A stretch of 64,000 bases of DNA from an uncultured Verrucomicrobiae bacterium (GCA_963764165.1 CAVXRD010000001.1:160001-224000), one strand, 5' to 3'. Counted from the stretch's first letter, positions 34,295 through 55,400 are shown. Numbers and translations are program-made. The notes: generated by a model from the sequence alone, not told the origin.

Positions 34295-34672
34295 TTGACA
34301 CTGTGTGACGGCCAGTCCTGGCAACCCATTTCAGACTGCCTTCGGAAATCCACTTTCGAAATTGACCGTCGGCATACAAACCGCAGGCACTATCACTTCC
34401 TTTTTACAGGACGCCCGGTCCGCGCGGTCTCGGTCAAAACCTGCATTACGCTCAAGGTTCGTTGGGAAGAGTTGGGCGGCGGCTTTGCCCATGTCAGCGA
34501 GTCCAATCCCGCTCTCAACGGCGTGAATTGCATCACCAAATGCTTGGAACATGAGCTGAGCAGGGACGATTGCTACGAGTCGGCCAAGTTCGGCGGCGGA
34601 ACCTGTGACCTGATGCTGTCCAAGGCGGTTTGGAAGGCTTCCAACCACGCCCGCCGACAGACGGGCCGTTGA
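34295..34672 (+). pseudogene. Degenerate HUH Rep-like gene (remnant of a third element)
   Basis: RRHYHFLFTG..WEELGGG..CITKCL..YESAKFG is homologous to 41667 and 49274; motif I deleted, motif III Tyr replaced by Cys. Confidence 0.75.
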
Positions 34673-34726
34673 GCACGCGGCACAAAGTCCCGCCCATGCG
34701 TGATGGGGCACTTGCCCCCGGTGATG

Positions 34727-34883
34727 GCTTGAAGATCCACTATGTCCACGCCCGGTCAACCACCTGGCGCTCGGATGCCAGAAGCCTTGCCGACACGGCT
34801 AAAAAGGAAAATTGCCACGCCCTGCGTGGCCCTGCGCATCCCCCTTCCCAAACAACTAGCCCAGCGGCAATGAGCGATTCAAA
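34727..34883 (+). repeat. Conserved ~160 bp non-coding element, copy 1
   Basis: gcttgaaga..cactatgt..cccggtcaaccac..cggctaaaaaggaaaa..gccacgccctgcgtggc..cccaaacaactagcccagcggcaatgagcgattcaaa; also at 42288 and 50235. Confidence 0.9.
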
Positions 34884-34959
34884 CTAGCGCGAAGCGCCCA
34901 GCTAAAACGCGAGCCGTTCGGTGCGCCTCATGTGCAAAAGACGTGGCAATGACCGTTTT

Positions 34960-35292
34960 TCACGGTCCAGGCCATTTTAAACGTTCTCTTAGAGATTCGG
35001 GGACGATCTTGAAAAGTTCCTTGATGCAATTTGTAATAGGACTATGGAGGGCATGAGCAGGATTATTTCCGCGCTCGTAGAAAATTCGAGCTTGTGAATT
35101 CAGCCAGTCAATATCGTACTCCGTAAAGTCGGCATTAAGCAATAGTCGTGGCAGATTATGCACCAATTCCATTTCAGGGTAGAGGGAACCATACGTAAAG
35201 CGTTTCCACGCCGTGTGAGTTTGCAAATTCCGCATCGCCGGAAGCATCCGATCAAGAATTCCAAGATAAAGTTCCTGTTTTTGCGTTAACAT
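34960..35292 (-). CDS. Putative immunity protein for toxin A
   Basis: 110 aa, lower GC, starts 7 bp after the toxin stop. Confidence 0.7.
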   Translation of the reverse strand: MLTQKQELYLGILDRMLPAMRNLQTHTAWKRFTYGSLYPEMELVHNLPRLLLNADFTEYDIDWLNSQARIFYERGNNPAHALHSPITNCIKELFKIVPESLRERLKWPGP

Positions 35293-35299
35293 GCGAGCC

Positions 35300-36283
35300 T
35301 TATGGTTGCGTCATCTTATAGGTCGTCGATGGAGAGCCTTGGTCCCAGCTTCCTGTGCTTAGAAAATCGTTTATGTATTTCGGATTGCCCGTCTTCGCGT
35401 AAAACATTAACGCAGCCGTCATCCGGTGATTTCCTTCGCTGATAATATAACGATTACCGCTTTTGTAGCCGCCAATCGTCGGGATAGCCGAACGGTCCTT
35501 GGGCGTGCTGCCGTACTCAGAAGGAACATTTCTCACGGGTTTTCCCGCAGCCATATCTTCTAGCAATTGCGGAATTTGATCAAACTTCTGCGCATCCAAA
35601 CCAGATTGCATTGATTCAACATCGACCCCGGGAGGAGCTTGGACTTCAAGCGGGAATTGGGGCGGCGGCACCGGGACGTTTGCTGATGGTGGTTGCGCCC
35701 CTGCATTTTGCACAGCAGTTGCATATCTGAAACCCATGTTCACCCCCCAAAGAGCAGTAACAATCATGGTGGCCGAAGCGACTTTTTGGTTGTAAGTAGC
35801 ATTCGGACTTAAGAGTATCGGGCCAAAGGCCCCAACGCCATAACCTGCACCAAATGCGCTCGCACCGGCAGCAAAACCCGGGAAAGCCACCCCTAGTGGG
35901 CCAAGCACTCCGCCAACACCTGCGCCGATTAAAACTTCTTGAAGCGTAACTACTCGACCTTGAGCCTCAGCATTAACCCCTGCGGATAGTCCTCCGATGG
36001 TAGCGCCGATTCCAACTGAAACTAGCACGTCGGCTAAGTCATGCCCACTGGGGTCCATGTGATTTGCCGGATTGGCTTCGCAGTAGAGGTATTTATGAAG
36101 GCCCAACGGGTCGGTTTGGGTGCCCTCGTCGGTATCCATCGTGATACCGGCGACGTATGCGATTTTTCCCGCCGAAGCCCCGGCGTCGTAGGCCCCCTGG
36201 CCCGCCCGCGTGAGCGCGTGCGCGTTGGACGGGGAAAGCCCGCCCAGGAGAACGGCTAAAAGAATGGACAGCCAGCGATGCAC
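35300..36283 (-). CDS. Signal peptide fused to orphan RHS tip A (hydrophobic segment + ParB/Srx-like toxin domain)
   Basis: GTG start MHRWLSILLAVLLGGLSPSNAHA; RHS core end MDTDEG..LHKYLYCEANPANHMDPSG; ParB-like YIISEGNHRMTAA. Confidence 0.75.
   Translation of the reverse strand: MHRWLSILLAVLLGGLSPSNAHALTRAGQGAYDAGASAGKIAYVAGITMDTDEGTQTDPLGLHKYLYCEANPANHMDPSGHDLADVLVSVGIGATIGGLSAGVNAEAQGRVVTLQEVLIGAGVGGVLGPLGVAFPGFAAGASAFGAGYGVGAFGPILLSPNATYNQKVASATMIVTALWGVNMGFRYATAVQNAGAQPPSANVPVPPPQFPLEVQAPPGVDVESMQSGLDAQKFDQIPQLLEDMAAGKPVRNVPSEYGSTPKDRSAIPTIGGYKSGNRYIISEGNHRMTAALMFYAKTGNPKYINDFLSTGSWDQGSPSTTYKMTQP
36127..36152. other. Putative recombination (att) site A
   Basis: cgtcggtatc-catcgt-gataccggcg: 10 bp inverted arms (9/10) around 6 bp, exactly where RHS homology stops. 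Confidence 0.7.
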
Positions 36284-36329
36284 GTCGGCGGCGATTTTAC
36301 GGGGAGAACGGCCCGGAGGCGAGGCTGAT

Positions 36330-37526
36330 TTATTCCCCCTCGGCCAGAGCCTCGGCGTCCAGCGCGGCCAGCAACTCAGCCCTGGCCGTGAGATCGACGG
36401 CGGGTGCGGCTGCGCCTGGCGTGGTTTCCGGCGCGTTGCTCGGCGCGATAAAGTTGAACTCCGCTTGCGCATCCGGCGCGGCGGTTGCGCTCTCAGGAGT
36501 GGGTGCCTGTTCGCTGTGATTGGGTGAAGGCTCCGCCTTCATTTTAGCGGGATGAAAACGATCATGCACCAACTTGAGATGGGCGATGGCGACATGGGTG
36601 TACACGCGCGTGCTCTCCAAAGAGGAATGACCGAGCATGGCCTGGATGTAGCGAATGTCGCAGCCCGCCTCCAAAAGCTGCGTGGCCATCGTGTGGCGGA
36701 ACAAGTGGCAACTGCCCCGGCGCGTGATGCCGGCGGCGCGAAAGATGTAGCGCACCTGCGAGCCAAGCCGGTTGGGATTGACTCGCACGCCCTTGGTATT
36801 CACGAACACGGCGGATTCGGCCACGGCGGAACAAAGCAGCGGTCGCGCTTCCAGCAGGTATTTTTCCAGCCACTGCAAGGCCCGCTCGCCAATCGGCACC
36901 ACCCGGTCTTTGCCGCCCTTGCCCTGCTCAATCCAGACAAAGCCCCGGTCAAAGTCCACGTCGCCTTTGTTGAGTTGACAGAGTTCGGCCCGGCGCATTC
37001 CGGTCGAATAGAGGACTTCCAGCGCGGCCCGGTTGCGCAACCCGGTGGGCTTGGCGAGATCAGGCACGTTCAACACCGATTCGATTTCAGCGGGCGAAAG
37101 CAGCGCATGGGGCAAACGCCGCGAGGTGCGCCCGTACTCGAGATCGCTGGCCGGATTGTAAAGTATAAGGCTTTGCTTGGTCAGCCAGCCGAAAAAACTG
37201 GCGATGATGCTGACGGCGTGATTCTGCGTCTCGACCGCCAGCGGCTCGCCGTCCTTTTTCCGGTAGTGGTAAAGGTAGGACTGATAATTGAAGATGACGG
37301 CGCGTGTGACCTGGCGGGCCTGGGTCAGCCCGGCCTGCTCGCAGAACGAACGGAAGGGCCGCAGCATTTTGCTGCGCGTGTAAACCGTCTGCGGCGAAAA
37401 GTGATGCACGCGCAAGTGTTCCAGGTAGCGGGCCATGAGGTAAAGCAGCCCCTGCGGGTCTTCATGCTCGGAAGGCTTATGACGCGACAGGTCTTGCTCG
37501 GCTAGATGGGCGTAATAGGTTCTCAC
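36330..37526 (-). CDS. XerC-like tyrosine recombinase, copy 1
   Basis: TGMRRAE, GKGGKDRVVP, HLFRH, MLGHS, TRVYTH catalytic set; SAM-like N-terminal region. Confidence 0.93.
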   Translation of the reverse strand: MRTYYAHLAEQDLSRHKPSEHEDPQGLLYLMARYLEHLRVHHFSPQTVYTRSKMLRPFRSFCEQAGLTQARQVTRAVIFNYQSYLYHYRKKDGEPLAVETQNHAVSIIASFFGWLTKQSLILYNPASDLEYGRTSRRLPHALLSPAEIESVLNVPDLAKPTGLRNRAALEVLYSTGMRRAELCQLNKGDVDFDRGFVWIEQGKGGKDRVVPIGERALQWLEKYLLEARPLLCSAVAESAVFVNTKGVRVNPNRLGSQVRYIFRAAGITRRGSCHLFRHTMATQLLEAGCDIRYIQAMLGHSSLESTRVYTHVAIAHLKLVHDRFHPAKMKAEPSPNHSEQAPTPESATAAPDAQAEFNFIAPSNAPETTPGAAAPAVDLTARAELLAALDAEALAEGE

Positions 37527-37602
37527 CGTTTTTTCTTTAGTTGTCCTCTCTTACGGCTGTTAAACCACTAACAACTAAAGAGATAAGAGCGTCACGGACG
37601 GC

Positions 37603-37670
37603 TGACGATTTCATGACGAAGCGTGACGAAAGATGTTTTTGGGATGACGATTTCCCCTTCATGCTGACGA
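37603..37670 (+). repeat. Helically phased TGACGA repeats, copy 1
   Basis: TGACGA at 37603, 37614, 37624, 37645, 37665. Confidence 0.75.
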
Positions 37671-40496
37671 TTTCTCTTCGTAGCCGGGCATGTCCGCCGA
37701 CTGCGGCTCCGGCCCGGTGTAGGCCAGTTCATAAGTGAAGCGGGCGGCGGTGCCTGGCAGCCGATGGCACAGGACGTATTCGAGGCTGACCAGCCGTTCC
37801 AGATGGCGGCGCACCTGCGCTTCGCCCCATTTCAACTGCTCGCGCATCTCGCGCCGGGTGAGCCGGACGCGCTCCGATGGCATTTTCTTTTCCTCAGCCA
37901 CTTTCTTGACCAGGCTGTGCAACACCGAAAGGAAGGCCCGCGTCGGCGGCGCCAGTTCGTCCAGGCTGCGCCCCATCACGCCCGCCGCCAGTTGCTGCGC
38001 CTGGCGCAAGTCCTCCTGATCGGCCTCGATGTATTGCACCACCTGGCCCCGGTGCTCGCAGCTTTTGACCGGCTTCTGGAACTGGCGCAAAAAGGCAATG
38101 GCCCGGATGAGTCCAAGATATTTCTTGTGGTCGCGGCGCAGGCGCAGGCGGTCGCTCGGAAAGCGCAGCGTCTCGGCAAACGGGATAATCACTTTCAGCG
38201 GTCGCAACAGCCGTTGGGCCGCGTGATGGGTCGCCAGCACGGCTTGCTTGTCGAGCCTGGAGAGCAGGCCCCGGAGCGTTTCGCTCTGGCGCTGGGCGTC
38301 GTGGATGCGCTGCGTTTGCTCGCGCTCCTCGTCCACCGAAAGCACCAAAAAGCGGTTGGCCAGCTCCTCGTCGAACTCGGCCTGCGTGCTGGTCATGAAC
38401 TGCGCCACCGGGCCTTCCACCGTTTTCAACTGCGTGCGCGGCATTCCGCCGTCCGGGTCTTTGACCGTCACGGCCAGCACCAGCTTTTTCTCGCTCTGCA
38501 AAATCTTGAGCGGATAGGCGGCGCTCTGGCTGCCCTCGTCCTCAACGACCGCCAGAACCTTGTGCTTCAACCCGTTTTCGGGAAGATAAAACAACGCCTG
38601 GGTGGTCATGGCCGTCAATGCCTCCTTGTCCTCGTCGGGCACAAAGTCAAGTATAGCGTTCAAGAGCGAGGATTTTCCGGCGGCGCTGCGGGCCACGATG
38701 AGGCCGGAAAGCGGGTCGTCCAGCTTGCGGCTGATGGCGATGAGGTAGCCCAAAAGCTTGTTGGTGTCCTCGCCCACCGTCCCGGCCAGCGCGAAGTCGG
38801 CCACGATGCGTTCCAAAAGCTTCGGCTCGCGCAACAGGGCCAGCGCCTTCATTTCCTCCTCCGGCGTCATGACGGGTGCGCCGGTGGCCGTGGCTTTCAT
38901 GCGTTCGATGATCTGCTTTTGCTGGTGTTCCTCCACCCGCACCAGGAGCTTGCTCAACTCGGCTTCGACGGTGTTCTTGTCCAGCCCGGCGACCTGCGCG
39001 GCCACGCTGGCAAAGCTGGCGCGGGCGCGGGCCTGGTAAAGATCGAGCGTGTCAACGTGCATGGCGTCATGCCGGATGAGGCGCAGATTGACCTTGAGGC
39101 TGTCAAAACTCGTATTGCTTGACAGTCCCCGGACGCGATAGACGCGGTCGCCTGCGCAGAGTTCGGCCACGCCATCGGGCAACATCTGAAAGCAAGCGGT
39201 GCTTGCATCCATTGCGCCTGATGGCGCAGGCGCTGCGCCGTTGCGTTCCGGCGTGTGTGCGCCGTTTGCTGACAGTGGCGCGATTTTCGGTGCCTGCAGA
39301 TCCACTGCGCCTGGCGGCGCGGGTTGGGCTGCGATTGCCTGGGCCGGTTCCGGCTCGGCTAAAGGAACAACCTGAATGGCGCTGACAACGTTCACCGGCA
39401 GCAGGCGGTAACTCTTGGCAAAGCATGAGGCCAGATCGCCTTTGGCGTCCTTGGATTGCCTCACCAAATCGTTGGCATCGGACTGGCGCGGCCATTCCAC
39501 CCGCCACGCCTCGATGCCCGCCGCTTCCAACTGGTGCGCCAGTTCGTTGGCGGCCGTGTTGCCTGGCTCGTCGCTGTCATAGCAGATCGTCACCCGGTCG
39601 GGACGGCACGCTTTCAACAGTTCCCAATGGCCGGGCGTGAACCCCCGGACGCCATAGCTCCAGGTCACGCTCTCGAACCCGTGGACGTAAAGGCTCAAGG
39701 CGTCAATGGCCGCTTCGCACAAAAGCCATTCGCGTTTGCCATGCAGTCCCGCCGCGTTCCACACCCCGCTGTGCTTTCCCGGCAGGTAAAGGTGCGGGCA
39801 GGCGTTGCGCACGGGCGCGGTGATGCGCCGCCCATACATTTCGCCGATGCCAGCCGTGGTGAGGACCGGGAACACGACGCATCCGGTCAGGTGCTCGTGG
39901 CCGCTCTCGCGCAGGATGCCCAGCCGCTGCAGCCGGTCGCGCAACGCCTTTCCCGCGCTCGTCCCTTCGGGCGGCAGCCGGTAGGCCAGCGTGCGGTTGG
40001 CGTAACCCAAACGAAAATGTTTGACAGATTCGGGGTGAAAGCAGCCCCGCTTTTGCAGGTATTGCATGGCGGCGGGCTGGTTCAAAAAGGTCTGGTGGTA
40101 AAAGTCGGCCACGCGCAAGAGCAGTTGGGCGTCGGTCACTTCCTCGCCGTCGCCGACCAGGCTGGCGTATTGCTTGCCCGATTTCGTTTTGACAGTCCCG
40201 GCCAGCGGCGTCCTGCCCTCCATTTCCAGCAGCCGCTCCACCGCCCGGCGGAAGGCGATTTTCTCCAGGCGCATGACCAGGTCAATGACGCTGCCCCCGC
40301 CGCAGCCAGCCAGGCAGTTCCACAGGTTTTTCTCCGGCGTGACGATGAACGAGGGTGTTTCGTCCTGATGGAACGGGCAGCGCGCCGCCAGGTCTTTGCC
40401 GTGCTTCTCCAGCTTGAGGCCGTAATGCTCGCAGAGGCGGGTCAGCGCAAACTCCGTTTTGAGCCGGGCCACTTCCTGTTCGCTAATCCATTTCAT
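37659..40496 (-). CDS. CHC2 zinc finger-TOPRIM primase with C-terminal P-loop ATPase, copy 1
   Basis: RCPFHQDETPS..WNCLAGC, LCEAAIDA, CYDSDEPG, ARSAAGKSSL. Confidence 0.9.
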   Translation of the reverse strand: MKWISEQEVARLKTEFALTRLCEHYGLKLEKHGKDLAARCPFHQDETPSFIVTPEKNLWNCLAGCGGGSVIDLVMRLEKIAFRRAVERLLEMEGRTPLAGTVKTKSGKQYASLVGDGEEVTDAQLLLRVADFYHQTFLNQPAAMQYLQKRGCFHPESVKHFRLGYANRTLAYRLPPEGTSAGKALRDRLQRLGILRESGHEHLTGCVVFPVLTTAGIGEMYGRRITAPVRNACPHLYLPGKHSGVWNAAGLHGKREWLLCEAAIDALSLYVHGFESVTWSYGVRGFTPGHWELLKACRPDRVTICYDSDEPGNTAANELAHQLEAAGIEAWRVEWPRQSDANDLVRQSKDAKGDLASCFAKSYRLLPVNVVSAIQVVPLAEPEPAQAIAAQPAPPGAVDLQAPKIAPLSANGAHTPERNGAAPAPSGAMDASTACFQMLPDGVAELCAGDRVYRVRGLSSNTSFDSLKVNLRLIRHDAMHVDTLDLYQARARASFASVAAQVAGLDKNTVEAELSKLLVRVEEHQQKQIIERMKATATGAPVMTPEEEMKALALLREPKLLERIVADFALAGTVGEDTNKLLGYLIAISRKLDDPLSGLIVARSAAGKSSLLNAILDFVPDEDKEALTAMTTQALFYLPENGLKHKVLAVVEDEGSQSAAYPLKILQSEKKLVLAVTVKDPDGGMPRTQLKTVEGPVAQFMTSTQAEFDEELANRFLVLSVDEEREQTQRIHDAQRQSETLRGLLSRLDKQAVLATHHAAQRLLRPLKVIIPFAETLRFPSDRLRLRRDHKKYLGLIRAIAFLRQFQKPVKSCEHRGQVVQYIEADQEDLRQAQQLAAGVMGRSLDELAPPTRAFLSVLHSLVKKVAEEKKMPSERVRLTRREMREQLKWGEAQVRRHLERLVSLEYVLCHRLPGTAARFTYELAYTGPEPQSADMPGYEEKSSA

Positions 40497-40918
40497 GGTG
40501 CTTGCGCACGGCCACCATTGAAGGAAACCCATTCGCCGGTTTTCGGGTTCCAGCATCCCCGCAGCCCGTCGGTGTCAAGAAGATGATGCCAGCGTCTTTC
40601 AGCGGTCGCGGGCGAACGGAGCGCGAGCTTGATCATGCGCTGGCCCCGGTCGTACCAGCCGCAGAGTGATTTAAGCCGGTCGTCCCATCCGTGCTGATAG
40701 GCTTCGCGCACGGTCAACCGTCCCAAGGCCGCCAGTTCCTTGCCCACGCCCGCCGCCAGCGCGTCCCGCTCCCAATCGTCCCAGGGATAATGGCCGTAAC
40801 TGCATTCGAGGACTTCCGAACCGAAGATGTCCAGCGGTCGCCGGAACTTTTTCATGGTGGGCCGTGGTCTGGCCAAACCCGTCAAGCCTGTTTCGGAAGA
40901 TTTTGACATGAGGCGCAT
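40493..40918 (-). CDS. Hypothetical protein, copy 1
   Basis: Identical protein at 48101-48526; ATGA overlap with the primase start. Confidence 0.65.
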   Translation of the reverse strand: MRLMSKSSETGLTGLARPRPTMKKFRRPLDIFGSEVLECSYGHYPWDDWERDALAAGVGKELAALGRLTVREAYQHGWDDRLKSLCGWYDRGQRMIKLALRSPATAERRWHHLLDTDGLRGCWNPKTGEWVSFNGGRAQAP

Positions 40919-40987
40919 TTAGCGGTATTTCGTATAACTGTGCAAGCACTTTCGTATATTTCGCCAGATTGCCTTTATGATTCGGAG
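40919..40987. promoter_or_regulatory. Divergent control region with repeated TTTCGTATA motifs
   Basis: AT-rich gap between divergent genes with two TTTCGTATA copies; same sequence at 48527-48595. Confidence 0.55.
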
Positions 40988-41359
40988 ATGACAACGGGAC
41001 GACCCGCATCGAAACCCCGCACTGTGTTGGGCCAGCGCATCTCCGAGGCTCGCCAGTTGGCTGGCCTGACTCAGCAGGCACTTGCCGACAAGGTCAACGT
41101 GTCTCAGCGCGTGATCGCCTACTGGGAGCGCGAAGCTGTTTCTTTGAGGGCAGACCAAATTAATGCTCTTGCCAGTGCGCTCAATGTGACGGCAGATGCT
41201 CTCCTGGGGCGCAAAGCCCCTCGCGGCGGCGGGCCGGTCGGAAAAGCACGGCGCATGTTTGAAGAAGTAAATAAACTGCCGCGTGACCGACAACAGCATG
41301 TTCTGCGCGTGGTCGAAGATCTGTTGAAAGCCAACCGTCCTGAAAAAGCAGCCGCTTAA
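40988..41359 (+). CDS. XRE-family HTH repressor, copy 1
   Basis: LGQRISEARQLAGLTQQALADKVNVSQRVIAYWER. Confidence 0.9.
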   Translation: MTTGRPASKPRTVLGQRISEARQLAGLTQQALADKVNVSQRVIAYWEREAVSLRADQINALASALNVTADALLGRKAPRGGGPVGKARRMFEEVNKLPRDRQQHVLRVVEDLLKANRPEKAAA

Positions 41360-41666
41360 ACGCCCGCCCCGTCCCCCGGGCAGTGGCGGAGTAGTGGGCG
41401 GATTCTGGGCGAGTAGTCAAGGATTGTGGCCCTGCCGCTTGACGGTCTGCCGGGCCTGTGCCATTGTCTCACCGTTGGAGCGATTGAAGAACGGCTTTGG
41501 TGTGTTTCCTTGGACGCCCGCGAGCGTCAGGTAAAGTTGTGATGCGTTTCTAAGTCTCCTCTCTTGTGTGGCCCGTGCGGCCTTTTCCCCGTTGGGGTTT
41601 TTTAACTGTTGGTTTCCAGCCTGGGCGCGGGTGCGTCCGGGCCTTGGTGACCCGCCGACTCGTGTG

Positions 41667-42185: not shown

Positions 42186-42287
42186 CAGAGAGGCCGTCGG
42201 GCACAACCTTGGGCAATCGCTCAGTTGTGACACTTCGAGCGGGCCCTGCCGGGGGAGCGGCGCGTCAGCGCCGCCCCCCGGCGGGTT

Positions 42288-42447: not shown

Positions 42448-42467
42448 ATCCGGCGCGAAGCGTCCGA

Positions 42468-43840: not shown

Positions 43841-43901
43841 GATGCGGGCGATTTTAACGGGAAGAGCCGAATGGTTGCGAGCGGATTATTTGAGCGGGCC
43901 G

Positions 43902-45257: not shown

Positions 45258-48104
45258 TTTCCCTTCGTAGCCGGGCATGTCCACCGCCTCCGGCTCCGGC
45301 CCGGCGTAAGCCAGCTCGTAATTGAAGCGGGCGGCGGTTCCTGGCATCCGATGGCACAGGACGTATTCGAGGCTGACCAGCCGTTCCAGATGGCGGCGCA
45401 CCTGCGCTTCGCCCCATTTCAACTGCTCGCGCATCTCGCGCCGGGTGAGGCGAACGCGCTCCGATGGCATTTTCTTTTCCTCGGCCACTTTATTGACAAG
45501 CGTATTCAAGGCGGCGAGGAACGCCCGCGTCGGCGGCGCCAGTTCGTCCAGGCTGCGCCCCATCACGCCCGCCGCCAGTTGCTGCGCCTGGCGCAAGTCC
45601 TCCTGATCGGCCTCGATGTATTGCACCACCTGGCCCCGGTGCTCGCAGCTTTTGACCGGCTTCTGGAACTGGCGCAAAAAGGCAATGGCTCGGATGAGTC
45701 CAAGATATTTCTTGTGGTCGCGGCGCAGGCGCAGGCGGTCGCTCGGAAAGCGCAGCGTCTCGGCAAACGGGATAATCACTTTCAGCGGTCGCAACAGCCG
45801 TTGGGCCGCGTGATGGGTGGCAAGCACCGCCTGCTTGTCGAGCCGGGAGAGCAGCCCCCGGAGCGTTTCGCTCTGGCGCTGGGCGTCGTGGATGCGCTGC
45901 GTTTGCTCGCGCTCCTCGTCCACCGAGAGCACCAAAAAGCGGTTGGCCAGTTCCTCGTCGAACTCGGCCTGCGTGCTGGTCATGAACTGCGCCACCGGGC
46001 CTTCCACCGTTTTCAACTGCGTGCGCGGCATGCCGCCGTCCGGGTCTTTGACCGTCACGGCCAGCACCAGCTTTTTCTCGCTCTGCAAAATCTTGAGCGG
46101 ATAGGCGGCGCTCTGGCTGCCCTCGTCCTCAACGACCGCCAGAACCTTGTGCTTCAAGCCGTTTTCAGGAAGATAAAACAACGCCTGCGTGGTCATGGCC
46201 GTCAACGCCTCCTTGTCCTCGTCGGGCACGAAGTCAAGTATAGCGTTCAAGAGCGAGGATTTACCGGCGGCGCTGCGGGCCACGATGAGGCCGGAAAGTG
46301 GGTCGTCCAGCTTGCGGCTGATGGCGATGAGGTAGCCCAAAAGCTTGTTGGCATCCTCGCCCACCGTCCCGGCCAGCGCGAAGTCGGCCACGATGCGTTC
46401 CAACAGCTTCGGCTCGCGCAACAGGGCCAGCGCCTTCATTTCCTCCTCCGGCGTCATCACCGGTGCGCCGGTGGCCGTGGCTTTCATGCGTTCAATGATC
46501 TGCTTTTGCTGGTGCTCCTCCACCCGCACCAGGAGCTTGCTCAACTCGGCTTCGACCGTGTTCTTGTCCAGCCCGGCGATCTGCGCGGCCACGCTGGCAA
46601 AGCTGGCGCGGGCGCGGGCCTGGTAAAGATCGAGCGTGTCCACATGCATGGCGTCATGCCGGATGAGGCGCAGATTGACCTTGAGGCTGTCAAAGCTCGT
46701 ATTGCTTGACAGTCCCCGGACGCGATACCTGCGGTCGCTGACGGAGAGTTCGGCCACGCCATCGGGCAAGAAGGCGAAGCCTTCACCCACTGCGCCTGAC
46801 GGCGCGGGCGGGCCGTTCGTTCCGTTTGTTGACAGTGGCGCGACTCTCGGCGCGTGCAAATCCACTGCGCCAACAGCGGCGCTTGGCGCTGGGCAGGCGG
46901 GGCTTGCATCCACTGCGCCTGGCGGCGCGGGTTGGGCTGCGATTGCCTGGGCCGGTTCCGGCACGGCTAAAGGAACAACCTGAATGGCGCTGACCACATT
47001 GGCTGGCAGCAAGCGATAGCTCTTGGCGAAGCATGAGGCCAGATCGCCTTTGGCGTCCTTGGATTGCCTCACTAAATCGTTGGCATCGGACTGGCGCGGC
47101 CATTCCACCCGCCACGCCTCGATGCCCGCCGCTTCCAACTGGTGCGCCAGTTCATTGGCGGCCGTGTTGCCTGGCTCGTCGCTGTCGTAGCAGATCGTCA
47201 CCCGGTCGGGACGGCACGCTTTCAACAGTTCCCAATGGCCGGGCGTGAACCCTCGAACGCCATAGCTCCAGGTCACGCTCTCGAACCCGTGGACGTAAAG
47301 GCTCAAGGCGTCAATGGCCGCTTCGCACAAAAGCCATTCGCGTTTGCCATGCAGTCCCGCCGCGTTCCACACCCCGCTGTGTTTGCCCGGCAGGTAAAGA
47401 TGCGGGCAGGCGTTGCGCACGGGCGCGGTGATGCGCCGCCCATACATTTCGCCGATGCCCGCCGTGGTGAGAACCGGGAACACGACGCACCCGGTCAGGT
47501 GCTCGTGGCCGCTCTCGCGCAGGATGCCCAGCCGCTGCAGCCGGTCGCGCAACGCCTTTCCCGCGCTCGTCCCTTCGGGCGGCAGCCGGTAGGCCAGCGT
47601 GCGGTTGGCGTAACCCAAACGAAAATGTTTGACAGCTTCGGGATGAAAGCAGCCGCGTTTTTGCAGGTACTGCATGGCGGCGGGCTGGTTCAAAAACGTC
47701 TGGTGGTAAAAGTCGGCCACCCGCGAAAGCAGTTGGGCGTCGGTCACTTCCTCGCCGTCGCCGACCAGGCTGGCGTATTGCTTGCCCGATTTCGTTTTGA
47801 CAGTCCCGGCCAGAGGCGTTTTGCCCTCCATTTCCAGCAGCCGCTCCACCGCCCGGCGGAAGGCGATTTTCTCCAGGCGCATGACCAGGTCAATGACGCT
47901 GCCCCCGCCGCAGCCAGCCAGGCAGTTCCACAGGTTTTTCTCCGGCGTGACGATGAACGAGGGCGTTTCGTCCTGATGGAACGGGCAGCGCGCCGCCAGG
48001 TCTTTGCCGTGCTTCTCCAGCTTGAGGCCGTAATGCTCGCACAGGCGGGTCAGCGCGAACTCCGTTTTAAGCCGGGCCACTTCCTGTTCGCTAATCCATT
48101 TCAT
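45246..48104 (-). CDS. CHC2-TOPRIM primase/ATPase, copy 2
   Basis: Same motifs as copy 1; differs mainly in the Pro/Ala linker. Confidence 0.9.
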   Translation of the reverse strand: MKWISEQEVARLKTEFALTRLCEHYGLKLEKHGKDLAARCPFHQDETPSFIVTPEKNLWNCLAGCGGGSVIDLVMRLEKIAFRRAVERLLEMEGKTPLAGTVKTKSGKQYASLVGDGEEVTDAQLLSRVADFYHQTFLNQPAAMQYLQKRGCFHPEAVKHFRLGYANRTLAYRLPPEGTSAGKALRDRLQRLGILRESGHEHLTGCVVFPVLTTAGIGEMYGRRITAPVRNACPHLYLPGKHSGVWNAAGLHGKREWLLCEAAIDALSLYVHGFESVTWSYGVRGFTPGHWELLKACRPDRVTICYDSDEPGNTAANELAHQLEAAGIEAWRVEWPRQSDANDLVRQSKDAKGDLASCFAKSYRLLPANVVSAIQVVPLAVPEPAQAIAAQPAPPGAVDASPACPAPSAAVGAVDLHAPRVAPLSTNGTNGPPAPSGAVGEGFAFLPDGVAELSVSDRRYRVRGLSSNTSFDSLKVNLRLIRHDAMHVDTLDLYQARARASFASVAAQIAGLDKNTVEAELSKLLVRVEEHQQKQIIERMKATATGAPVMTPEEEMKALALLREPKLLERIVADFALAGTVGEDANKLLGYLIAISRKLDDPLSGLIVARSAAGKSSLLNAILDFVPDEDKEALTAMTTQALFYLPENGLKHKVLAVVEDEGSQSAAYPLKILQSEKKLVLAVTVKDPDGGMPRTQLKTVEGPVAQFMTSTQAEFDEELANRFLVLSVDEEREQTQRIHDAQRQSETLRGLLSRLDKQAVLATHHAAQRLLRPLKVIIPFAETLRFPSDRLRLRRDHKKYLGLIRAIAFLRQFQKPVKSCEHRGQVVQYIEADQEDLRQAQQLAAGVMGRSLDELAPPTRAFLAALNTLVNKVAEEKKMPSERVRLTRREMREQLKWGEAQVRRHLERLVSLEYVLCHRMPGTAARFNYELAYAGPEPEAVDMPGYEGKSSA

Positions 48105-48526
48105 GGTGCTTGCGCACGGCCACCATTAAAGGAAACCCATTCGCCGGTTTTCGGGTTCCAGCATCCCCGCAGCCCGTCGGTGTCAAGAAGATGATGCCAG
48201 CGTCTTTCAGCGGTCGCGGGCGAACGGAGCGCGAGCTTGATCATGCGCTGGCCCCGGTCGTACCAGCCGCAGAGGGATTTAAGCCGGTCGTCCCATCCGT
48301 GCTGATAGGCTTCGCGCACGGTCAACCGTCCCAAGGCCGCCAGTTCCTTGCCCACGCCCGCCGCCAGCGCGTCCCGCTCCCAATCGTCCCAGGGATAATG
48401 GCCGTAACTGCATTCGAGGACTTCCGAACCGAAGATGTCCAGCGGTCGCCGGAACTTTTTCATGGTGGGCCGTGGTCTGGCCAAACCCGTCAAGCCTGTT
48501 TCGGAAGATTTTGACATGAGGCGCAT
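48101..48526 (-). CDS. Hypothetical protein, copy 2
   Basis: Identical to 40493-40918. Confidence 0.65.
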   Translation of the reverse strand: MRLMSKSSETGLTGLARPRPTMKKFRRPLDIFGSEVLECSYGHYPWDDWERDALAAGVGKELAALGRLTVREAYQHGWDDRLKSLCGWYDRGQRMIKLALRSPATAERRWHHLLDTDGLRGCWNPKTGEWVSFNGGRAQAP

Positions 48527-48595
48527 TTAGCGGTATTTCGTATAACTGTGCAAGCACTTTCGTATATTTCGCCAGATTGCCTTTATGATTCGGAG

Positions 48596-48967
48596 ATGAC
48601 AACGGGACGACCCGCATCGAAACCCCGCACTGTGTTGGGCCAGCGTATCTCCGAGGCTCGCCAGTTGGCTGGCCTGACTCAGCAGGCACTTGCCGACAAG
48701 GTCAACGTGTCTCAGCGCGTGATCGCCTACTGGGAGCGCGAAGCTGTTTCTTTGAGGGCAGACCAAATTAATGCTCTTGCCAGTGCGCTCAATGTGACGG
48801 CAGATGCTCTCCTGGGGCGCAAAGCCCCTCGCGGCGGCGGGCCGGTCGGAAAAGCACGGCGCATGTTTGAAGAAGTAAATAAACTGCCGCGTGACCGACA
48901 ACAGCATGTTCTGCGCGTGGTCGAAGATCTGTTGAAAGCCAACCGTCCTGAAAAAGCAGCCGCTTAA
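48596..48967 (+). CDS. XRE-family HTH repressor, copy 2
   Basis: Identical protein to 40988-41359. Confidence 0.9.
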   Translation: MTTGRPASKPRTVLGQRISEARQLAGLTQQALADKVNVSQRVIAYWEREAVSLRADQINALASALNVTADALLGRKAPRGGGPVGKARRMFEEVNKLPRDRQQHVLRVVEDLLKANRPEKAAA

Positions 48968-49273
48968 ACGCCCGCCCCGTTCCCGAGCAGTGGCGAGCAG
49001 TGGGCGGATTCTGGGCGAGTAGTGAAAGGATGGTGGCCCCGCCGCTTGACGGTCTGCCGGGCCTGTGCGATTGTCCCACCGTTGGAGCGATTGAAAACGG
49101 CTTTGATGTGATTCCTTGGACGCCCGCGAGCGTCAGGTAAAGTTGTGATGCGTTTCTAAGTCTCCTCTCTTGTGTGGCCCGTGCGGCCTTTTCCCCGTTG
49201 GGGTTTTTAACTGTTGGTTTCCAGCCTGGGGCGCGTGTGCGCCTTGGGCCGGAACCATTCGCATTGCCGTTTT

Positions 49274-50128
49274 ATGCTCGCGCCTTTTGAAGTTATTGGC
49301 CACCGCGTCCAGGCCGCCGCCGGACACGGCGCTTTGTCGTTTGAACGGGTGCTGGTCCTGGCGGACGCGGACCCGTTCTGCCCGTTGCGCCAGACAGTGG
49401 ATTACGCCCTGTCGCCGGATGAGGCCGGGCTTCCCGCTGGCCAGTGGCTGGGCCGCGTCCTGCTCCTGGGCATCCATGACATGGCCACCGGCTACGGCGG
49501 GCGCTTGCGCTTCGAGGGCCGCATCATGGGGGCGCAAACTCAGCGCGAGAACCTGGCGGCGCTGCCCGCCCCGGCCCACACCGGCACGCCCCGCCGCCGT
49601 TCCTTGGAAAGCCCCGATCTGCTCATGCTCTGCGGCGAGGCCTGGCAGTTCTTTGGCACGCTCACCTTCAAGCAGGAGCGGCTGCCGGAGCGCGTGCGCC
49701 AGTCCATGTTCAACGCCGCCTTCCGCCAACTGGCCAAAGAACTGCATCTCTATTTTCCCCGTTTGGCCTGGTGCCGCCGGGAAGAGCTGGGCGAGCAGTT
49801 GGGGCGGCGGCATTATCACTTTCTGTTGACAGGACTCCCGGCCCGGGCCGCGAACATCTCCACCTGCTTTTTTCTCATGCACGCATGGGAGAAGATCGGC
49901 GGCGGGATGGCGCGTGTCCGGCTGTACAACCAGGGGCAGGACGGCCTGGCGTACATCACGAAGTGCCTCCACGGCGGCGACGCCTACGAGACTTCCAAGT
50001 TCGCGGAGGGCCTGTCACACCTCACGCTCTCAGACGGGTTGCAGCGCATGTTGCGCTCCCGTCCAGTGATGGGAGAGAGGCGTCTTGCACAACGCGACAC
50101 GCCGACAGCGGGCGGCTTTCCTGCGTAG
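49274..50128 (+). CDS. HUH Rep-like protein, copy 2, with N-terminal extension (start uncertain)
   Basis: FFGTLTF, RRHYHFLL, LAYITK, YETSKF. Confidence 0.75.
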   Translation: MLAPFEVIGHRVQAAAGHGALSFERVLVLADADPFCPLRQTVDYALSPDEAGLPAGQWLGRVLLLGIHDMATGYGGRLRFEGRIMGAQTQRENLAALPAPAHTGTPRRRSLESPDLLMLCGEAWQFFGTLTFKQERLPERVRQSMFNAAFRQLAKELHLYFPRLAWCRREELGEQLGRRHYHFLLTGLPARAANISTCFFLMHAWEKIGGGMARVRLYNQGQDGLAYITKCLHGGDAYETSKFAEGLSHLTLSDGLQRMLRSRPVMGERRLAQRDTPTAGGFPA

Positions 50129-50234
50129 GGAAACGCTCTCTGGCAGCAAGGCCAATGGCCGGTTGTGACTTCCAAGCGGTTCCTGGGGGGCGGGCGGAGC
50201 GGCGCGTCAGCGCCGCTCGCCCGTCCCACAGGTT

Positions 50235-50395
50235 GCTTGAAGACCCACTATGTACACACCCGGTCAACCACCCTGGCGGTCGGATGCCAAAAGCCGGACC
50301 CAGCACGGCTAAAAAGGAAAATTGCCACGCCCTGCGTGGCCCTGCTCATCCCCCATTCCCAAACAACTAGCCCAGCGGCAATGAGCGATTCAAAA
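50235..50395 (+). repeat. Conserved ~160 bp non-coding element, copy 3
   Basis: See 34727; preceded by a GC hairpin at ~50183-50232. Confidence 0.9.
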
Positions 50396-50438
50396 ATGGC
50401 GCGAACAAGTCGAAAATCAAACGGCTTATGTTTGACGG

Positions 50439-50981
50439 TCAACCGCCAAGACTTTTTGCCAGTTGAGCCACTCGATAGTCTTCCATCAGGCTGAGGCAAA
50501 CTTCCTCCATCGGTGGAAAGTCTATTGTAAACAAAGGTCGCAGGGCGTTGGCAAAATCAGGTAAGGTCAAATCGCCAAAGCCAGTGGCCAACGCCGTTAA
50601 GGTCACTTTTTTAGCTGCCAGTTCCGCCGCCATCCGCAAAGCCGTGGCAATGGTTTCTTGAACGCTTTCCGGCGTCGCGTGATACCAGCCGTCCACCGCC
50701 ACCGCATGAAGCACCGCCTTATAGGGAAGCTCCGACCCGGAATACGCAATCACTTCACCGAACCGGGCGGCGCGTGGCGTCCGTCCTGCAATGACCTTGT
50801 GCAATTCGGCCTGCATCCGTGGCCCATATCGCCCCAGCAAATCCGCCCCCACGCCGCCGGAAAGATTCAACGAGACGTTGGCCGAGCAAATCAGCACGTC
50901 CGCTGGCTCGTCCAAAATGTTGCACGCCTTTAACGTCCATCTGATGAACTTCGGCTGAAAAGTTGCGGTCGCTGCTTGCAA
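50439..50981 (-). CDS. Macro-domain protein
   Basis: ILDEPADVLICSANVSLNLSGGVGA..VLHAV..ALATGFG macro-domain signature. Confidence 0.85.
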   Translation of the reverse strand: MQAATATFQPKFIRWTLKACNILDEPADVLICSANVSLNLSGGVGADLLGRYGPRMQAELHKVIAGRTPRAARFGEVIAYSGSELPYKAVLHAVAVDGWYHATPESVQETIATALRMAAELAAKKVTLTALATGFGDLTLPDFANALRPLFTIDFPPMEEVCLSLMEDYRVAQLAKSLGG

Positions 50982-51299
50982 TTAGCCCTCAACCGCAAAA
51001 GTGATGGTTTTGACCGCTTCAGTCAGAACAACAGCTTGCGTTGAGCGAGCAACCCCCGCCGTTTGCCCCTTGGCCAACTTGAGAACAATGTGGCTGAATG
51101 GCTCGCCCGGATTTTCAGATTCCCGAAACCCAACCTCTGCGTCGTCAGGGACATCAAGCACCGACCCAATTTGTACCCCCGACGGAACCAATGCGGCTGG
51201 CAGCAGAATGGTTACTGGCTCATTAGCCGTTAGCCGCAGTCCCTTCGGCCAGCCAAACGCTTTGTTTGACTCAATCTGAACTGTGCGGGCTTGATTCAT
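50982..51299 (-). CDS. Hypothetical protein (possible orphan immunity)
   Basis: 105 aa ATG ORF tightly packed between neighbours. Confidence 0.55.
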   Translation of the reverse strand: MNQARTVQIESNKAFGWPKGLRLTANEPVTILLPAALVPSGVQIGSVLDVPDDAEVGFRESENPGEPFSHIVLKLAKGQTAGVARSTQAVVLTEAVKTITFAVEG

Positions 51300-51462
51300 T
51301 TAATTGCCTCCCGAAAGATACCGTATATCATCCGGCATCACTCCCTGTTGTTGCGTGACATACTCTGTCCAAAATGACCTTGGAAATTCTTGCACATTCG
51401 ACAATTTGGACGGACTGACAACTGCTGCTGCGCCAATATTCTGACTGCTCCCGGCGAGATCA

Positions 51463-52413
51463 TCAATGGATGCCTGCTGTAACTTTGTCAACCTCGAGTC
51501 CCTTTAACAGCTTCGGTGCAACATCAAAAAACCTTCGAATAAAAATTATCGCGTAATCACACGCGCTTTCCACCTCGTCATTTGTAAGATACTCCCATTC
51601 CGTCGGTCCGACCCCAAGCCATGAACAAAAAGATATATTCTGTTGCATGGACAAACACTTGCTGTATGTACCCTTCGTGGCTGGAAATAAAAACATATTC
51701 TCGCTGAAAATATCGTGGGAATATTCAATCACCGCATCATCTCGACCAAAGTGAAAATTTGTGCTTACAATCCATCCTCCAATACTTGTTTCAAAATGTG
51801 GCTCTGGATCATTAAGCTGCCAGTCTAATATCCTTTGGTTTTTAAATGTGCTTCTGAATTTTCCCAACATCTGCTTACGGAGCATTTTCCTGCTGGCGAA
51901 GCTGATTTTTTCGCCAGCAGCTCGTCGTGCCGCAATTTGCTCTTCAAATGTTTGAGGAATGGAGGCAACAATAGGCTCAATTTTTGACAGAATGGCGTTA
52001 TCATCGTCCACGTAGATTTCCCCGATGAATTTCTCAAAATCCGGCCGACACATCTGAAATACCGTTAGCGCCTCGGCTGCTTTTCCCTCTCTTTTGAGCC
52101 GTAGCACGTGCCGATATAGCCCTTTGATTCGAAAAATATTATCACACTGCAACAGCAAAAGCTCGTCACTTTGAGAACACTTATCGCCCAAGTCCTGAAC
52201 CACGTTACAAAAATTTCTCCTAAGAAGTCCATCAATCAAGGTCAACTGCTGCGTCCTGTTCAGTTGTGTAATAAATTGACTTACCTCCCAAACGATCCCG
52301 GACTTAAACAACCGAAGATTGGAAAACGACAAGTCAATCTCGTTCCGCCATTCACTGGCAGCCCATAAGTAAAATCGAACTTGAAACTCGCGGCGCGCTT
52401 CTGAAAACGTCAT
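51463..52413 (-). CDS. Putative immunity protein for the REase-like tip
   Basis: Low-GC 316 aa ORF starting 16 bp after the RHS stop. Confidence 0.6.
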   Translation of the reverse strand: MTFSEARREFQVRFYLWAASEWRNEIDLSFSNLRLFKSGIVWEVSQFITQLNRTQQLTLIDGLLRRNFCNVVQDLGDKCSQSDELLLLQCDNIFRIKGLYRHVLRLKREGKAAEALTVFQMCRPDFEKFIGEIYVDDDNAILSKIEPIVASIPQTFEEQIAARRAAGEKISFASRKMLRKQMLGKFRSTFKNQRILDWQLNDPEPHFETSIGGWIVSTNFHFGRDDAVIEYSHDIFSENMFLFPATKGTYSKCLSMQQNISFCSWLGVGPTEWEYLTNDEVESACDYAIIFIRRFFDVAPKLLKGLEVDKVTAGIH

Positions 52414-52429
52414 ACGGATCTCGGCTGGC

Positions 52430-55400
52430 TCATGGGGCTCCCTCCTCAGCAGTCTCGGCTGCAATTCCCTCTGAATCTTCGATGTCGGCCCCTTGTGCTC
52501 GCGTTGTGGACGATGCAAACTTTTGCGAAACTGATTGCAGTGAATTATATGTGATCAACCCCAATACCGGCGGCGTGACCACCACAAAGAATGGCGGCAC
52601 AGGAACGGTAAAGCTGAGCGGTGGAGTATACTCAGCAGCGCTTCCCACATGCCAGCCGCCCTGTGGATCTATCGCTTTAAACACTACCATGTATCCTGCA
52701 AGCTGAGCTGCGCCCGCCAACAGTCCTTTAGCGTTTCCAGGTTTTATTTCGAAGACTGATTTTTGCTCCACGTTAACCAGATCGGGCAACGCTTGTTCAA
52801 TTAAGCGAGCCTTACCCAATAGTTTAAGGGCTCTCAGAATAGACTTGCCAGTAAGACCATTTAACTCTCCAAACTTGCGCCGAAAATCCGCCATGATAAC
52901 TTTTTCCACCGCTTTCCCAAAAATTGCAGCCGGGCTGTTTCCCGATGTTGAAGACGCCGCAAATCCCGACAGGTCAGTCATATTGACGGGGTCGGCTTGG
53001 CAATAGATATATTTATGAAGCGACAGCGGACCTTCGTTATCCCCTTCGTCGGTATCCATCGTCCAAAACCTACCGAGTTTTGGGTCATAATTGCGGGCGC
53101 GGAGGTAGTATTGCTGCAAGTCCGGGTCCCATTGCTGACCGGTGTAGCGGTAGTTGCTTATCGTGCTGTCGGTGCTGTTGAGCAGGTTGGCCTCGTTCCC
53201 CACCGCGTCATAGGTGTAACTGGTCACGTTCGGCGAAGAAATCGTGCTGTTGGTCACGAACGCCAGCCGCCCAAGATAATCGTAGGCATATTCCAAACTC
53301 ACATCCGCCGTGCTCGAGTTGGTCGCCGGCCCGTTGGTTGTGATCGGCACGGTCAAAAAGCCCGAGATGCTCAGAATGTGGTTATCGGGTGTCCATGTAT
53401 AACTCAACTCTTCCAAGTCGTACATCGAAGCTTTCTGCGTTAGGCGATTGAGCCCGTCGTAATTGTAACTGTACGATTGCGTGGTAACGCCGCCCACCTT
53501 GACCGTCACGCTGCTGCGCTGCCCGCCAGCGGTATAGGTGTAAGTCTCCACCGTGTTGGTTTCACCCGCGTTGATCGGAGGGAGCGATTTCGTGGCCATC
53601 CGGCCCATCACGTCCTCGGTCGTAACGATGGTTTTGCCTCGGAAATCGGTCACGGAAGTTTGCTGGACATTGATGCTTGAGCCGTTGGTCAGAGGCACAT
53701 CGGCGTAGGCGGTGATTTCAGTAGAACCGTCCGGCAAAATTCTCGCGGTGCGGCGGCTCAACGCGTCATATTCGTATTGCGTCAGATTCCCATTGGCGTC
53801 GCTCTGCGAAAGCTGGTTGCCGCGCTCGTCATAGGTGTACTGGTAGGTCAGTTGACCGGAAGAAGCTGTGTCCAGGATGACTGAGGTCAGCAATCCACGG
53901 TAATCGTAGGTGTAGGCAGTCTTAACTCCCGCCTCGTCTGTCGTCCCAATTTTGTTCCCGGCCCCGTCATACGCAATGGCCGTCTGATGGCGCGTCCCGT
54001 CGGCCAGCACGGGATACGTCGTCAATATCAGCCGATTGGCCGTGTCATAGAGGTAATCGGTCTTGTTCGTTTTGGCATCGATCATTTCGATCTGGTTGCC
54101 ATTGGGGTCGTAAAAATACTGCGTCGAGTTCGTGCCGCCGGTGGGCGCGATGGTTTGATTGATGCTCGACAGGTTCACCGTGTAATTGGTGTAAACCAGC
54201 ACGTTGGTGCGGCGTCCGGCGGCATCGTAATTGTATTGCGTGACGTTGCCATTGGCGGCCATGGAATATTGCACACGGCCGGCCAGATCATAGACCGTCC
54301 GCGTAAAGGACACAAGCGTTCCCGCAGCCGTGTTGGTCATTCCGTAAATCGTGTCCGCGCCCGAGCGGGTGATCAAACTTGAGTTGATCGCCTTGGCCAA
54401 AATCACACCCGAAAGCCGCTCCATGCAAACGACCCGCCCTGCTCCGTCGTAAACATTCAAGCTCGCGGCATTGGTGGTCGCGCCGCCGGTGCCAGGCACC
54501 GACCGATCTTGCGTGTAAAGAACATGATTCAACTCGTCATACGTCATGCGCGACACCGTCCCGTCCGGATACGCCGTTTCGATCAAATTCCCCGCCGCGT
54601 CGTAGGTGTTGGTGGTGGAGCGATTGTCCACGTCCGTCGTGATGTAGGGATGCCCGGCGTGGTCATAAATGGTCGTGTTGGTGCGGCCAATCGGATCAAT
54701 TGTGGCCACCAGGCGATTCTCCGCGTCATATTGGTATTGCGTCACGATGGGCGTGTTCGGAACGCCATTGACGGTCGCCGTCGTGGTCTCGGAAGTCCGA
54801 TTGCCGTTGGCGTCGTAAGTGTAACTGGTGGTCGAGACAGGCATCCCGCTGCCGGACGGCCATTGCTGGGTCATGGACGCGACTTCGCCGGAACTGTTCG
54901 GCTGCGGCTGGCCGCTGCCGGGATAATAGGTGTAGGAGGTCGTCACCGGATATGACACGCCTGGCGATTGCTGCGTCGAGCTGGCCACCAACCCGCCCGC
55001 CGCCACCCCGTTGATTCCCATGATCACCGGCGCGTAAGTCATCGACGATTGCGAACCCGTCGGATCCTGCGATTGCAGCAGATTGCCGTTGGACTGATCG
55101 TAAACATTGGTCGTGCCGTTGCCATTGGCGTCCGTTGAGAGGGTCGGCTGCCCCATCACGTTCAACTGCACCGACGTCGAATTTCCCAGCGCATCCGATT
55201 GGCTGATGGGCCGGTTCAAATAATCATAACCTGTCGATTGCGTATTGCCATAGCTGTCTGTTTGCGCTGTGACATTGCCCTTTGAATCATACGTATAAGC
55301 CGTGCCCAAATAGCCGGGTGCGGTGATCGGTTGCAGCACGGCGCCCACAGCGCCCGAGGATGTATAATTGACGGTCACCGTCTGGTTCGTCCCACTGACA

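Follow-up and report, generated by a model that had tools for sequence, protein, structure and literature searches.

We analysed a stretch of 64,000 nucleotides (nt) from an uncultured Verrucomicrobiae bacterium (GCA_963764165.1 CAVXRD010000001.1:160001-224000), hereafter the window, in which a tandem stack of elements that each bear a toxin tip lies inside an rhs gene. The stack occupies the minus strand behind the rhs core and consists of two elements of 9.4 and 7.6 kb, element 0 (43700-53062) and element B (36143-43699), and of the remnant of a third, element A, behind the last of three junction sites. Along this strand, the rhs core is followed by a site, a first tip (tip0), an open reading frame (ORF) of 351 amino acids (aa), small ORFs, a Macro-domain gene and a backbone; then by a second site, tipB, a 164-aa membrane protein and a second backbone; and lastly by a third site, tipA, a 110-aa ORF, a 190-nt backbone remnant and an IS110 transposase. 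An initial annotation, made from the sequence alone, had proposed this gene order and a 12-bp site shared by all three junctions. ORF, repeat and domain analysis bore out the order, and the 12-mer GGTATCCATCGT was indeed found in three exact copies in the window (36131, 43688 and 53051), which are the three predicted junctions. The chance expectation is 0.14 copies, and none of 100 shuffles reached three; a fourth copy in the 7.0-Mb genome, at C1:1464366, is at about chance level. The stack is also visible in base composition, G+C being 62-63% in the backbones and 48-51% in the tip-immunity modules, and no further backbone copy was found elsewhere in the genome. The presence of a tandem stack of tip-bearing elements inside an rhs gene is thus a confirmed observation.

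The rhs core (53063-56473, minus strand), which we take as the resident target gene, contains RHS/YD repeats in six stretches that satisfy the PF05593 model for RHS shell repeats (E 9e-45), and an unbroken ORF (52430-56407) joins it in frame to tip0. The gene has lost its 5' part: its stop-to-stop frame opens at 56473, an integrase fragment and an IS630 abut it upstream, and no N-terminal trafficking or secretion domain was found in the frame that opens there. The label of RHS core given in the initial annotation therefore holds for the repeats and needs this correction for the start of the gene. Site 1 (53051-53062, minus strand; attL type) is made of the core arm, ACGATG GATACC and the tip arm of the element; it encodes T-M-D-T at aa 1116 of the ORF. 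Within the RHS core end, these residues come just past the GRF motif, and the canonical tip boundary lies about 30 aa further on. Site 2 (43688-43699, minus strand) is the attP-like junction between elements 0 and B, and site 3 (36131-36142, minus strand) lies within an 11-6-11 near-palindrome at 36126-36153.

We compared these junctions with each other. Between the core-side and the integrase-side site, 12 nt are identical, the next 83 nt are 75% identical and the sequences upstream are unlike. In contrast, the two integrase-side junctions share homology that continues across the site and for about another 95 nt, reaching the conserved core-end codons. Hence, the claim that the junctions break at the 12-mer stands as a sharp edge in the comparison of core and orphan, and does not extend to the integrase-side pair. 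Twelve exact nucleotides followed by 75% identity are insufficient for RecA-type recombination. At the tipA junction, the palindrome is composed of TCGCCGGTATC, the spacer ACGATG and GATACCGACGA, with 10 of 11 positions matched, a score reached at 0.5% of random positions, and its 6-nt spacer begins exactly at the homology edge. The 12-mer thus corresponds to the spacer together with that half of the right arm which adjoins it, as predicted for the core site of a tyrosine recombinase with the crossover in the spacer. The right arm travels with the tip, being the same in tip0 and tipA and different in tipB. On the other side of the site, the integrase-side arm (43700-43901 in element 0, minus strand) is unlike the rhs core upstream of the 12-mer. 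In both copies this arm is open in the frame of the tip (43700-43840 and 36143-36290, minus strand) and its translation contains, about 25 aa ahead of T-M-D-T, a stretch that resembles a signal peptide, LAVLLGGLSPSNAHA, so that the tip could be read as a small secreted protein in the tandem or the circular form. An F-x-FLA stretch is common to the integrase-side arm of the relatives; the open region may be a gene or a conserved DNA arm.

The three tips, described as unrelated in the initial annotation, gave no significant blastp match with one another. tip0 (52430-53050, minus strand) comprises the remaining core end and a toxin domain, is read in one frame with the core and has a Tox-REase-9 match under the cut-off (E 8e-4). 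tipB (42959-43687, minus strand) comprises core-end codons and a toxin domain with an HExxH motif, for which Atlas gives a metallopeptidase lead (0.88-0.89), and tipA (35300-36130, minus strand) comprises core-end codons and a toxin domain with a ParB-like Atlas lead (0.85-0.86). The nuclease-like, peptidase and ParB-like identities proposed earlier are therefore leads, one below its cut-off and two with Atlas scores below 0.9. The RHS core-end motif was found in the main rhs gene and in both orphans, which TIGR03696 also matches, below its cut-off. Each tip is followed by a presumed immunity gene, a role suggested by position: the 351-aa ORF behind tip0 (51463-52518, minus strand; no family found), the gene of a 164-aa hydrophobic protein behind tipB (42468-42962, minus strand; no family found) and the 110-aa ORF behind tipA (34960-35292, minus strand). 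Element 0 carries in addition a cargo of a 105-aa ORF and a Macro-domain protein (50439-51299, minus strand; PF01661, E 2.5e-12). The Macro-domain gene (50439-50981) sits between the presumed tip0 immunity gene and the backbone, and may encode an orphan antidote against some ADP-ribosylating toxin.

The backbone encodes an HUH Rep, an XRE regulator, a 141-aa protein, a primase-ATPase and an Xer-like integrase. In element 0, these are a 304-aa Rep (49214-50128, plus strand), the XRE regulator (48548-48967, plus strand; a copy of 40940-41359), the 141-aa conserved protein, for which no family was found (48101-48526, minus strand), a 952-aa primase-ATPase (45246-48104, minus strand; a copy of 37659-40556) and a 403-aa tyrosine integrase (43902-45113, minus strand) that is 92% identical to the copy in element B. 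Element B encodes a 205-aa Rep (41568-42185, plus strand), the XRE regulator (40940-41359, plus strand; PF01381, E 2e-11), the 141-aa protein (40493-40918, minus strand; 73-78% aa identity in five loci of relatives), a 965-aa primase-ATPase with Zn-ribbon DnaG and Toprim domains that matches DNA primase PHROGs (37659-40556, minus strand) and a 398-aa integrase (36330-37526, minus strand; PF00589, E 1e-44). The conserved left end of the backbone is present in element 0 (50150-50405, minus strand; 85.8% identical to 42211-42459), in element B, where it was delimited by backbone comparison (42211-42473, minus strand), and as the third remnant (34715-34907, minus strand; 87% and 91% identical to the other two copies). 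We rejected this stretch of 200-260 nt as an attachment site: relatives have a single copy per element, beside rep, and the single insertions L016 and L017 described below lack a second copy. No tRNA or other RNA gene that could serve as target was found by ARAGORN or Rfam.

Between the two backbones (36036-41635 and 43593-49241), identity is 93.4% over 5.6 kb, which take in the stretch between the XRE gene and a point about 95 nt past the site, the integrase gene included. Their Rep genes are divergent, with a single blastn stretch of 68 nt at 79%, so that the near-identity claimed for the backbones is limited to the part that starts at the XRE gene. Both Reps carry motifs (FGTLTF, HYHFLL/HFHYLM, YITK/YVLK) that we take to be those of HUH Reps; PF23343 scored 26.1 bits for the element 0 protein, under its cut-off of 27.8, and was weak for that of element B. 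Each Rep type of the window matches the other type in the loci of relatives at 42-46% aa identity (tblastn). The window Reps are 73-88% identical in aa to those of three elements from other genera, L015, L016 and L017 (element 0 to L016, 88%; element B to L015, 80%), where primase and integrase reach just about 40%; from these identities, the Rep module seems to have been swapped between elements.

We then assigned the integrase to a family. It contains the catalytic domain (PF00589, E 1.3e-44) and the SAM-like N-terminal domain (PF13495, E 2.7e-8) and passes the NCBIfam model NF002331 (PRK01287, 'XerC' subfamily) with 407 bits for a cut-off of 371. It missed the XerC and XerD equivalog models (228 versus 335 and 226 versus 330 bits) and the integron-integrase models TIGR02249 (123 versus 265 bits) and NF011946 (86 versus 435 bits). 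R178, K203, H274, R277, H300 and Y309, presumably the catalytic R-K-H-R-H-Y residues of tyrosine recombinases, are invariant in a six-sequence alignment. The cut-off of NF002331 was exceeded in 5 of the 301 genomes taken as a sample of the phylum, indicating an accessory gene, and in none of 14 control genomes.

An empty counterpart of such an element was identified in E. coli. A related element is present in 61 of 5,426 complete E. coli genomes, with XRE, primase and integrase proteins 33%, 42% (over the full length) and 43% identical to those of the window. E. coli D6 contains two copies, annotated 'DNA primase' and 'XerC', behind a vgrG-linked rhs gene. Their repeat unit, 94% identical, begins exactly at the DPIGL codons; both carry the same HYD1 ADP-ribosyltransferase tip on the predicted element side and different tips behind xerC, and a tip-Imm8 unit without a backbone lies between two sites. 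At the same chromosomal locus, JNE120442 has one element with a different tip set and 21F61 has none. In 21F61, the core is followed by a 15-mer, tip Z and immunity Z; in JNE120442, it is followed by the 15-mer, a new tip, 7.9 kb that include the primase and xerC genes, a second 15-mer, tip Z and immunity Z. With a length of 7,928 bp, the insert is bounded by 15-nt repeats (14/15 matched) that lie in the DPIGL codons of rhs, past which the identity falls to about 70%. The empty site reads GGTAACG, GATCCGATAGGGTTG, AGAGG; its left flank is kept at the core-side junction and its right flank at the integrase-side junction. The 21F61 allele equals the occupied allele up to the site and then the sequence behind xerC (100.000% over 9,802 nt), and the immunity Z product has the same protein accession in both genomes. 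The tip-immunity pair that adjoins the core in 21F61 is thus the one found behind xerC in JNE120442, which is the tip displacement that had been predicted. Two other E. coli hits, H27 and H28, were discarded as empty sites since they turned out to be the rhsC locus, and a search with the D6 tip Z returned matches mainly from the ISEc1 flank. A SymE-family gene, on the opposite strand, follows nearly every tip-immunity module and lies inside the E. coli elements (L107, L110, L111), and may be part of the conserved right end of the module.

Closer relatives were sought in 40 related genomes, from which six loci in neighbouring genera were obtained, the closest integrases being 40-45% identical to that of the window. 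The same backbone was recognised by tblastn in the loci of three genomes (G002, G011, G013); in a fourth (L018, G036), just the integrase and the tip behind it matched. In five of the six loci, the profile detected an RHS core end directly after the integrase gene, and in the sixth, L015, a degenerate RHS-end motif was seen by eye. L016 and L017 are two single insertions in one genome whose sole flanks are RHS-end direct repeats. These repeats have identical 17-mers at their sharp left edge; compared with the edge in the window, theirs is shifted upstream by about 25 codons of the RHS frame.

To cover a wider range, we scanned one genome per species with the integrase alignment and obtained 78 loci from many phyla, picked by integrase similarity alone, and searched them with an RHS core-end profile built from the window by coordinates. 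A same-strand RHS end lies at most 1.6 kb after the integrase in 31 of the 54 loci with at least 1.6 kb downstream (opposite strand, 1), and 3-10.5 kb upstream in 15 of the 31 loci with at least 9 kb upstream (opposite strand, 0); over all 78 loci, 104 RHS-end hits are on the integrase strand and 8 on the opposite one. These counts and the near relatives support the expectation of the initial annotation that integrase homologues would be linked to RHS tips, except that the junction codon varies. Of the 34 loci that have a hit no further than 1.6 kb away, 18 show a distance of 70-409 nt between site and integrase. Homology starts abruptly, with an identical block of 12-20 nt, in the window, in E. 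coli and in four loci whose longest identical block coincides with the left edge or lies at most 8 nt from it (L034, 18 nt; L074, 20 nt; L068, 17 nt; L079, 12 nt). The core-side junction lies in a long rhs frame in L079, L056 and E. coli, and elsewhere in short orphan fragments. Tandem arrays were found in L043, L044, L045 and L054. In addition, arrays of tip-immunity cassettes without a backbone stand beside related integrases in L070 (n = 9, after the integrase), L047 (n = 11, before it) and L059 (n = 3), each array having one identical sharp left border within the RHS core-end codons; these arrays resemble integrons with protein tips as cassettes.

The anatomy of the stack, its recurrence across phyla and the E. 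coli pair of empty and occupied alleles are observations. The initial annotation had read the stack as the product of repeated integration of a circular element, made of tip, immunity gene and backbone, into rhs, and the linkage in relatives and the E. coli pair support it. We consider it likely that the stack is made of integrative elements with an attachment site inside the last conserved rhs codons, which arrived repeatedly. The circle would carry, in this order, the integrase gene, the arm, the core site, the rest of the RHS core end, the toxin tip, the immunity gene, an optional cargo, and the genes for Rep, XRE, the 141-aa protein and the primase-ATPase. The Xer-like integrase, presumably the catalyst of the event, would recombine the core site of the element with the matching sequence in the resident rhs (here ACGATG + GATACC, T-M-D-T), and integration would fuse the tip of the element in frame to the resident RHS shell. 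The former tip would be displaced to behind the integrase gene together with its immunity gene, which could still protect the cell from there, and new arrivals at the fresh core-side site would build the stack, here element 0, element B and the element A remnant. The elements would excise, replicate with Rep and the primase and transfer between cells; no transfer genes were seen in them. We lean slightly towards a broader proposal, in which these elements form an autonomous family extending from Verrucomicrobiota to E. coli, the cassette arrays without a backbone included, that performs an enzyme-driven displacement of rhs C termini, each arrival altering the toxin of the host and supplying the matching antidote, as an 'integron for protein tips' and a selfish drive.

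Several observations weigh against integration at a defined site in rhs. Without its 5' part, the resident rhs probably leaves its installed tip undelivered at present, and the window locus may be a fossil, though both integrase and both primase genes are intact. Among the 30 other genomes of the family, we found neither a close orthologue of the rhs gene of the window nor an empty site for its own elements; the empty site looked for was obtained for the E. coli member of the family. No circle or deletion junction of the window elements was established in Logan contigs of peat and soil metagenomes, which came in pieces of less than 500 nt, held at most 0.21 of the words and settle nothing on circles; a joint of 43657 with 53114, seen at low depth (depth 3, side 24), falls in conserved core-end sequence and may stem from another rhs gene. 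Just downstream of the integrase, an RHS end went undetected in 23 of the 54 loci. The profile start at the integrase-side junction ranges from 1 to 39, which makes the crossover codon specific to a lineage rather than universal, and a dif-like palindrome was dropped as a feature of the family's sites, being significant just at the tipA junction of the window and in L056. In the E. coli pair, one of the 15 positions is not the same in the core-side site as in the empty site. The repeats of L055 and L063 extend over 200-390 nt and have their longest identical block off the edge, which fits homologous recombination too. Lastly, the identical blocks are often the most conserved RHS motifs (DPIGL, RxYDP), so that their identity could partly reflect protein conservation.

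Homologous recombination is indeed the route proposed by Jackson et al. (2009; PMC2935791), through a circular intermediate. In a Campbell-type version, a RecA-dependent crossover would take place in a carried, 5'-truncated rhs fragment and the integrase would serve another site or purpose. A sharp left edge is expected here too, as the start of the carried fragment, and for the lineages with long repeats, L055 and L063, whose best identical block is inside the repeat, this is a possible explanation. As a general account, we judge it improbable. The window offers just 12 identical nt before identity drops to 75% over 83 nt, and the E. coli pair 14/15 nt before it drops to about 70%; with 12-15 identical nt, recombination through a carried fragment is unlikely. 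Scattered crossovers, moreover, would not put the longest block at the edge, as seen in the window, L034, L074, L068 and L079, nor does this route account for the short distance between site and integrase that is kept across phyla.

An integron-like capture, in which a platform integrase would gather circular tip-immunity cassettes and the platform would have reached rhs otherwise, makes the tips behind the integrase captured rather than displaced. The cassette arrays of L070, L047 and L059, with their identical sharp left borders, and the tip-Imm8 unit of D6 agree with it. Yet each tip of the window precedes a backbone or what is left of one, in the E. coli pair a whole 7.9-kb element is inserted at once with the former resident tip behind xerC, and the integron-integrase score is far under the cut-off (123 versus 265 bits). 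As a replacement for repeated integration by the elements, we hold capture to be very unlikely; using the same site and enzyme, it extends that explanation. A still smaller chance, close to negligible, is left to an assembly artefact or a local duplication by unequal crossing-over. The order in the window is indeed read from assembled contigs only, but the 7.0 Mb were assembled into 5 contigs, the copies diverge by 6.6% in sequence and have different Rep genes, tips and cargo, and tandem arrangements were seen again in other, unrelated genomes (L043/L044, L054, E. coli D6, G108).

We class the system as an integrative element aimed at the 3' end of a gene. Like tRNA-gene islands and P4-like satellites, it has an integrase beside the site, direct repeats of the target end, an integrase-primase module and tandem arrays; those islands and satellites restore the gene with a faithful 3' copy, whereas here a different toxin domain and immunity gene are supplied, so that the product changes. 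As in integrons, a tyrosine recombinase would insert promoterless cassettes at an expressed position, with the older ones behind. Unlike in integrons, the integron-integrase models are not reached, there is one kind of site, in coding sequence and yielding protein fusions, and the 'cassette' of the window is a whole replicon. The Xer-like enzyme is shared with Xer/dif systems and IMEX, and the tipA junction of the window has the 11-6-11 palindrome, which is the layout of a dif site; unlike these systems, the element brings a recombinase of its own and has a target other than dif, and the palindrome is not found family-wide.

Displacement of rhs C termini was described by Jackson et al. (2009; PMC2935791): new tips push older ones, with a piece of core, downstream into orphan strings, and a circular intermediate was postulated. 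As far as that description goes, the arrival of tips and the orphan strings are alike, and the integrase encoded by the element, the short defined site and the circle's own Rep and primase are specific to the system reported here. Recombinases of suspected role stand beside the immunity arrays of rAID in Bacteroidales (PMC12247911), polyimmunity loci adjoin XerC/D (Zhang et al. 2012, PMC3482391), integrase genes, again of suspected role, are associated with Rhs in bee-gut bacteria (Steele et al. 2017), and a preprint (10.64898/2026.07.13.738213) cites Martinkus et al. (2026, Curr Biol) for Xer-dependent systems beside poly-immunity arrays in Xenorhabdus and Photorhabdus. These recombinase-associated defence arrays share with the stack a tyrosine recombinase beside orphan immunity or toxin modules, conserved junctions and a suspected role in acquisition; as far as they have been described, they are associations or immunity-only, with no site in rhs, no in-frame tip swap and no replicative backbone. 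In the full-text literature searched, a scope that did not extend to Martinkus et al. (2026), we found associations only; an element that replaces the tip of an rhs gene by in-frame integration is not described there.

How polymorphic toxins (Rhs and, by analogy, CdiA and MafB) acquire new warheads and why orphan tips pile up behind them has been a standing question since 2009, the accepted account being homologous recombination with an unexplained circular intermediate. If the present interpretation is correct, an element-encoded integrase acting on a short in-frame site would supply both the circle and the enzyme and would explain the single sharp border common to the orphans of an array. 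A mobile element would then profit by altering the weapon of its host and, in the broader proposal, would act as a selfish drive, since carriers would kill non-carriers. The frequency of the element among complete E. coli genomes, where it is annotated just as 'XerC' and 'DNA primase', makes the idea testable in a tractable organism.

Other features surround the stack. On its downstream side, an IS110-family transposase (33077-34165, minus strand; PF01548 and PF02371) lies 550 nt past the end of the homology of the third backbone. Directly upstream of the truncated rhs, the segments 56372-58603 and 58939-60619 comprise the C-terminal fragment of another tyrosine integrase (plus strand), a two-frame IS630-type transposase and, past these two, a DUF6088/AbiEii toxin-antitoxin pair. 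A giant rhs-type paralogue of more than 4,582 aa occupies the window from 1 to about 12000 on the minus strand (G000:C1:158253-171998 and beyond), with its own tip and a 213-aa ORF downstream; two rhs fragments follow it just outside the window (C1:155421-157652 and C1:153548-154852). Its core end differs from the 12-mer at 4 positions, and the rhs paralogues of the genome have 3-4 mismatches to it. The window also contains a CRISPR array of 92 repeats of 36 nt (25957-32579) adjoining cas genes (15429-25458) that encode GSU0053 and GSU0054 family proteins, a Cas4-Cas1 fusion and a Cas3 whose HD domain is C-terminal. Its spacers gave zero matches to the window elements and all fetched loci; one of them (28237-28273) matches its own genome at C4:327232-327264 over 33 nt and may therefore be self-targeting.

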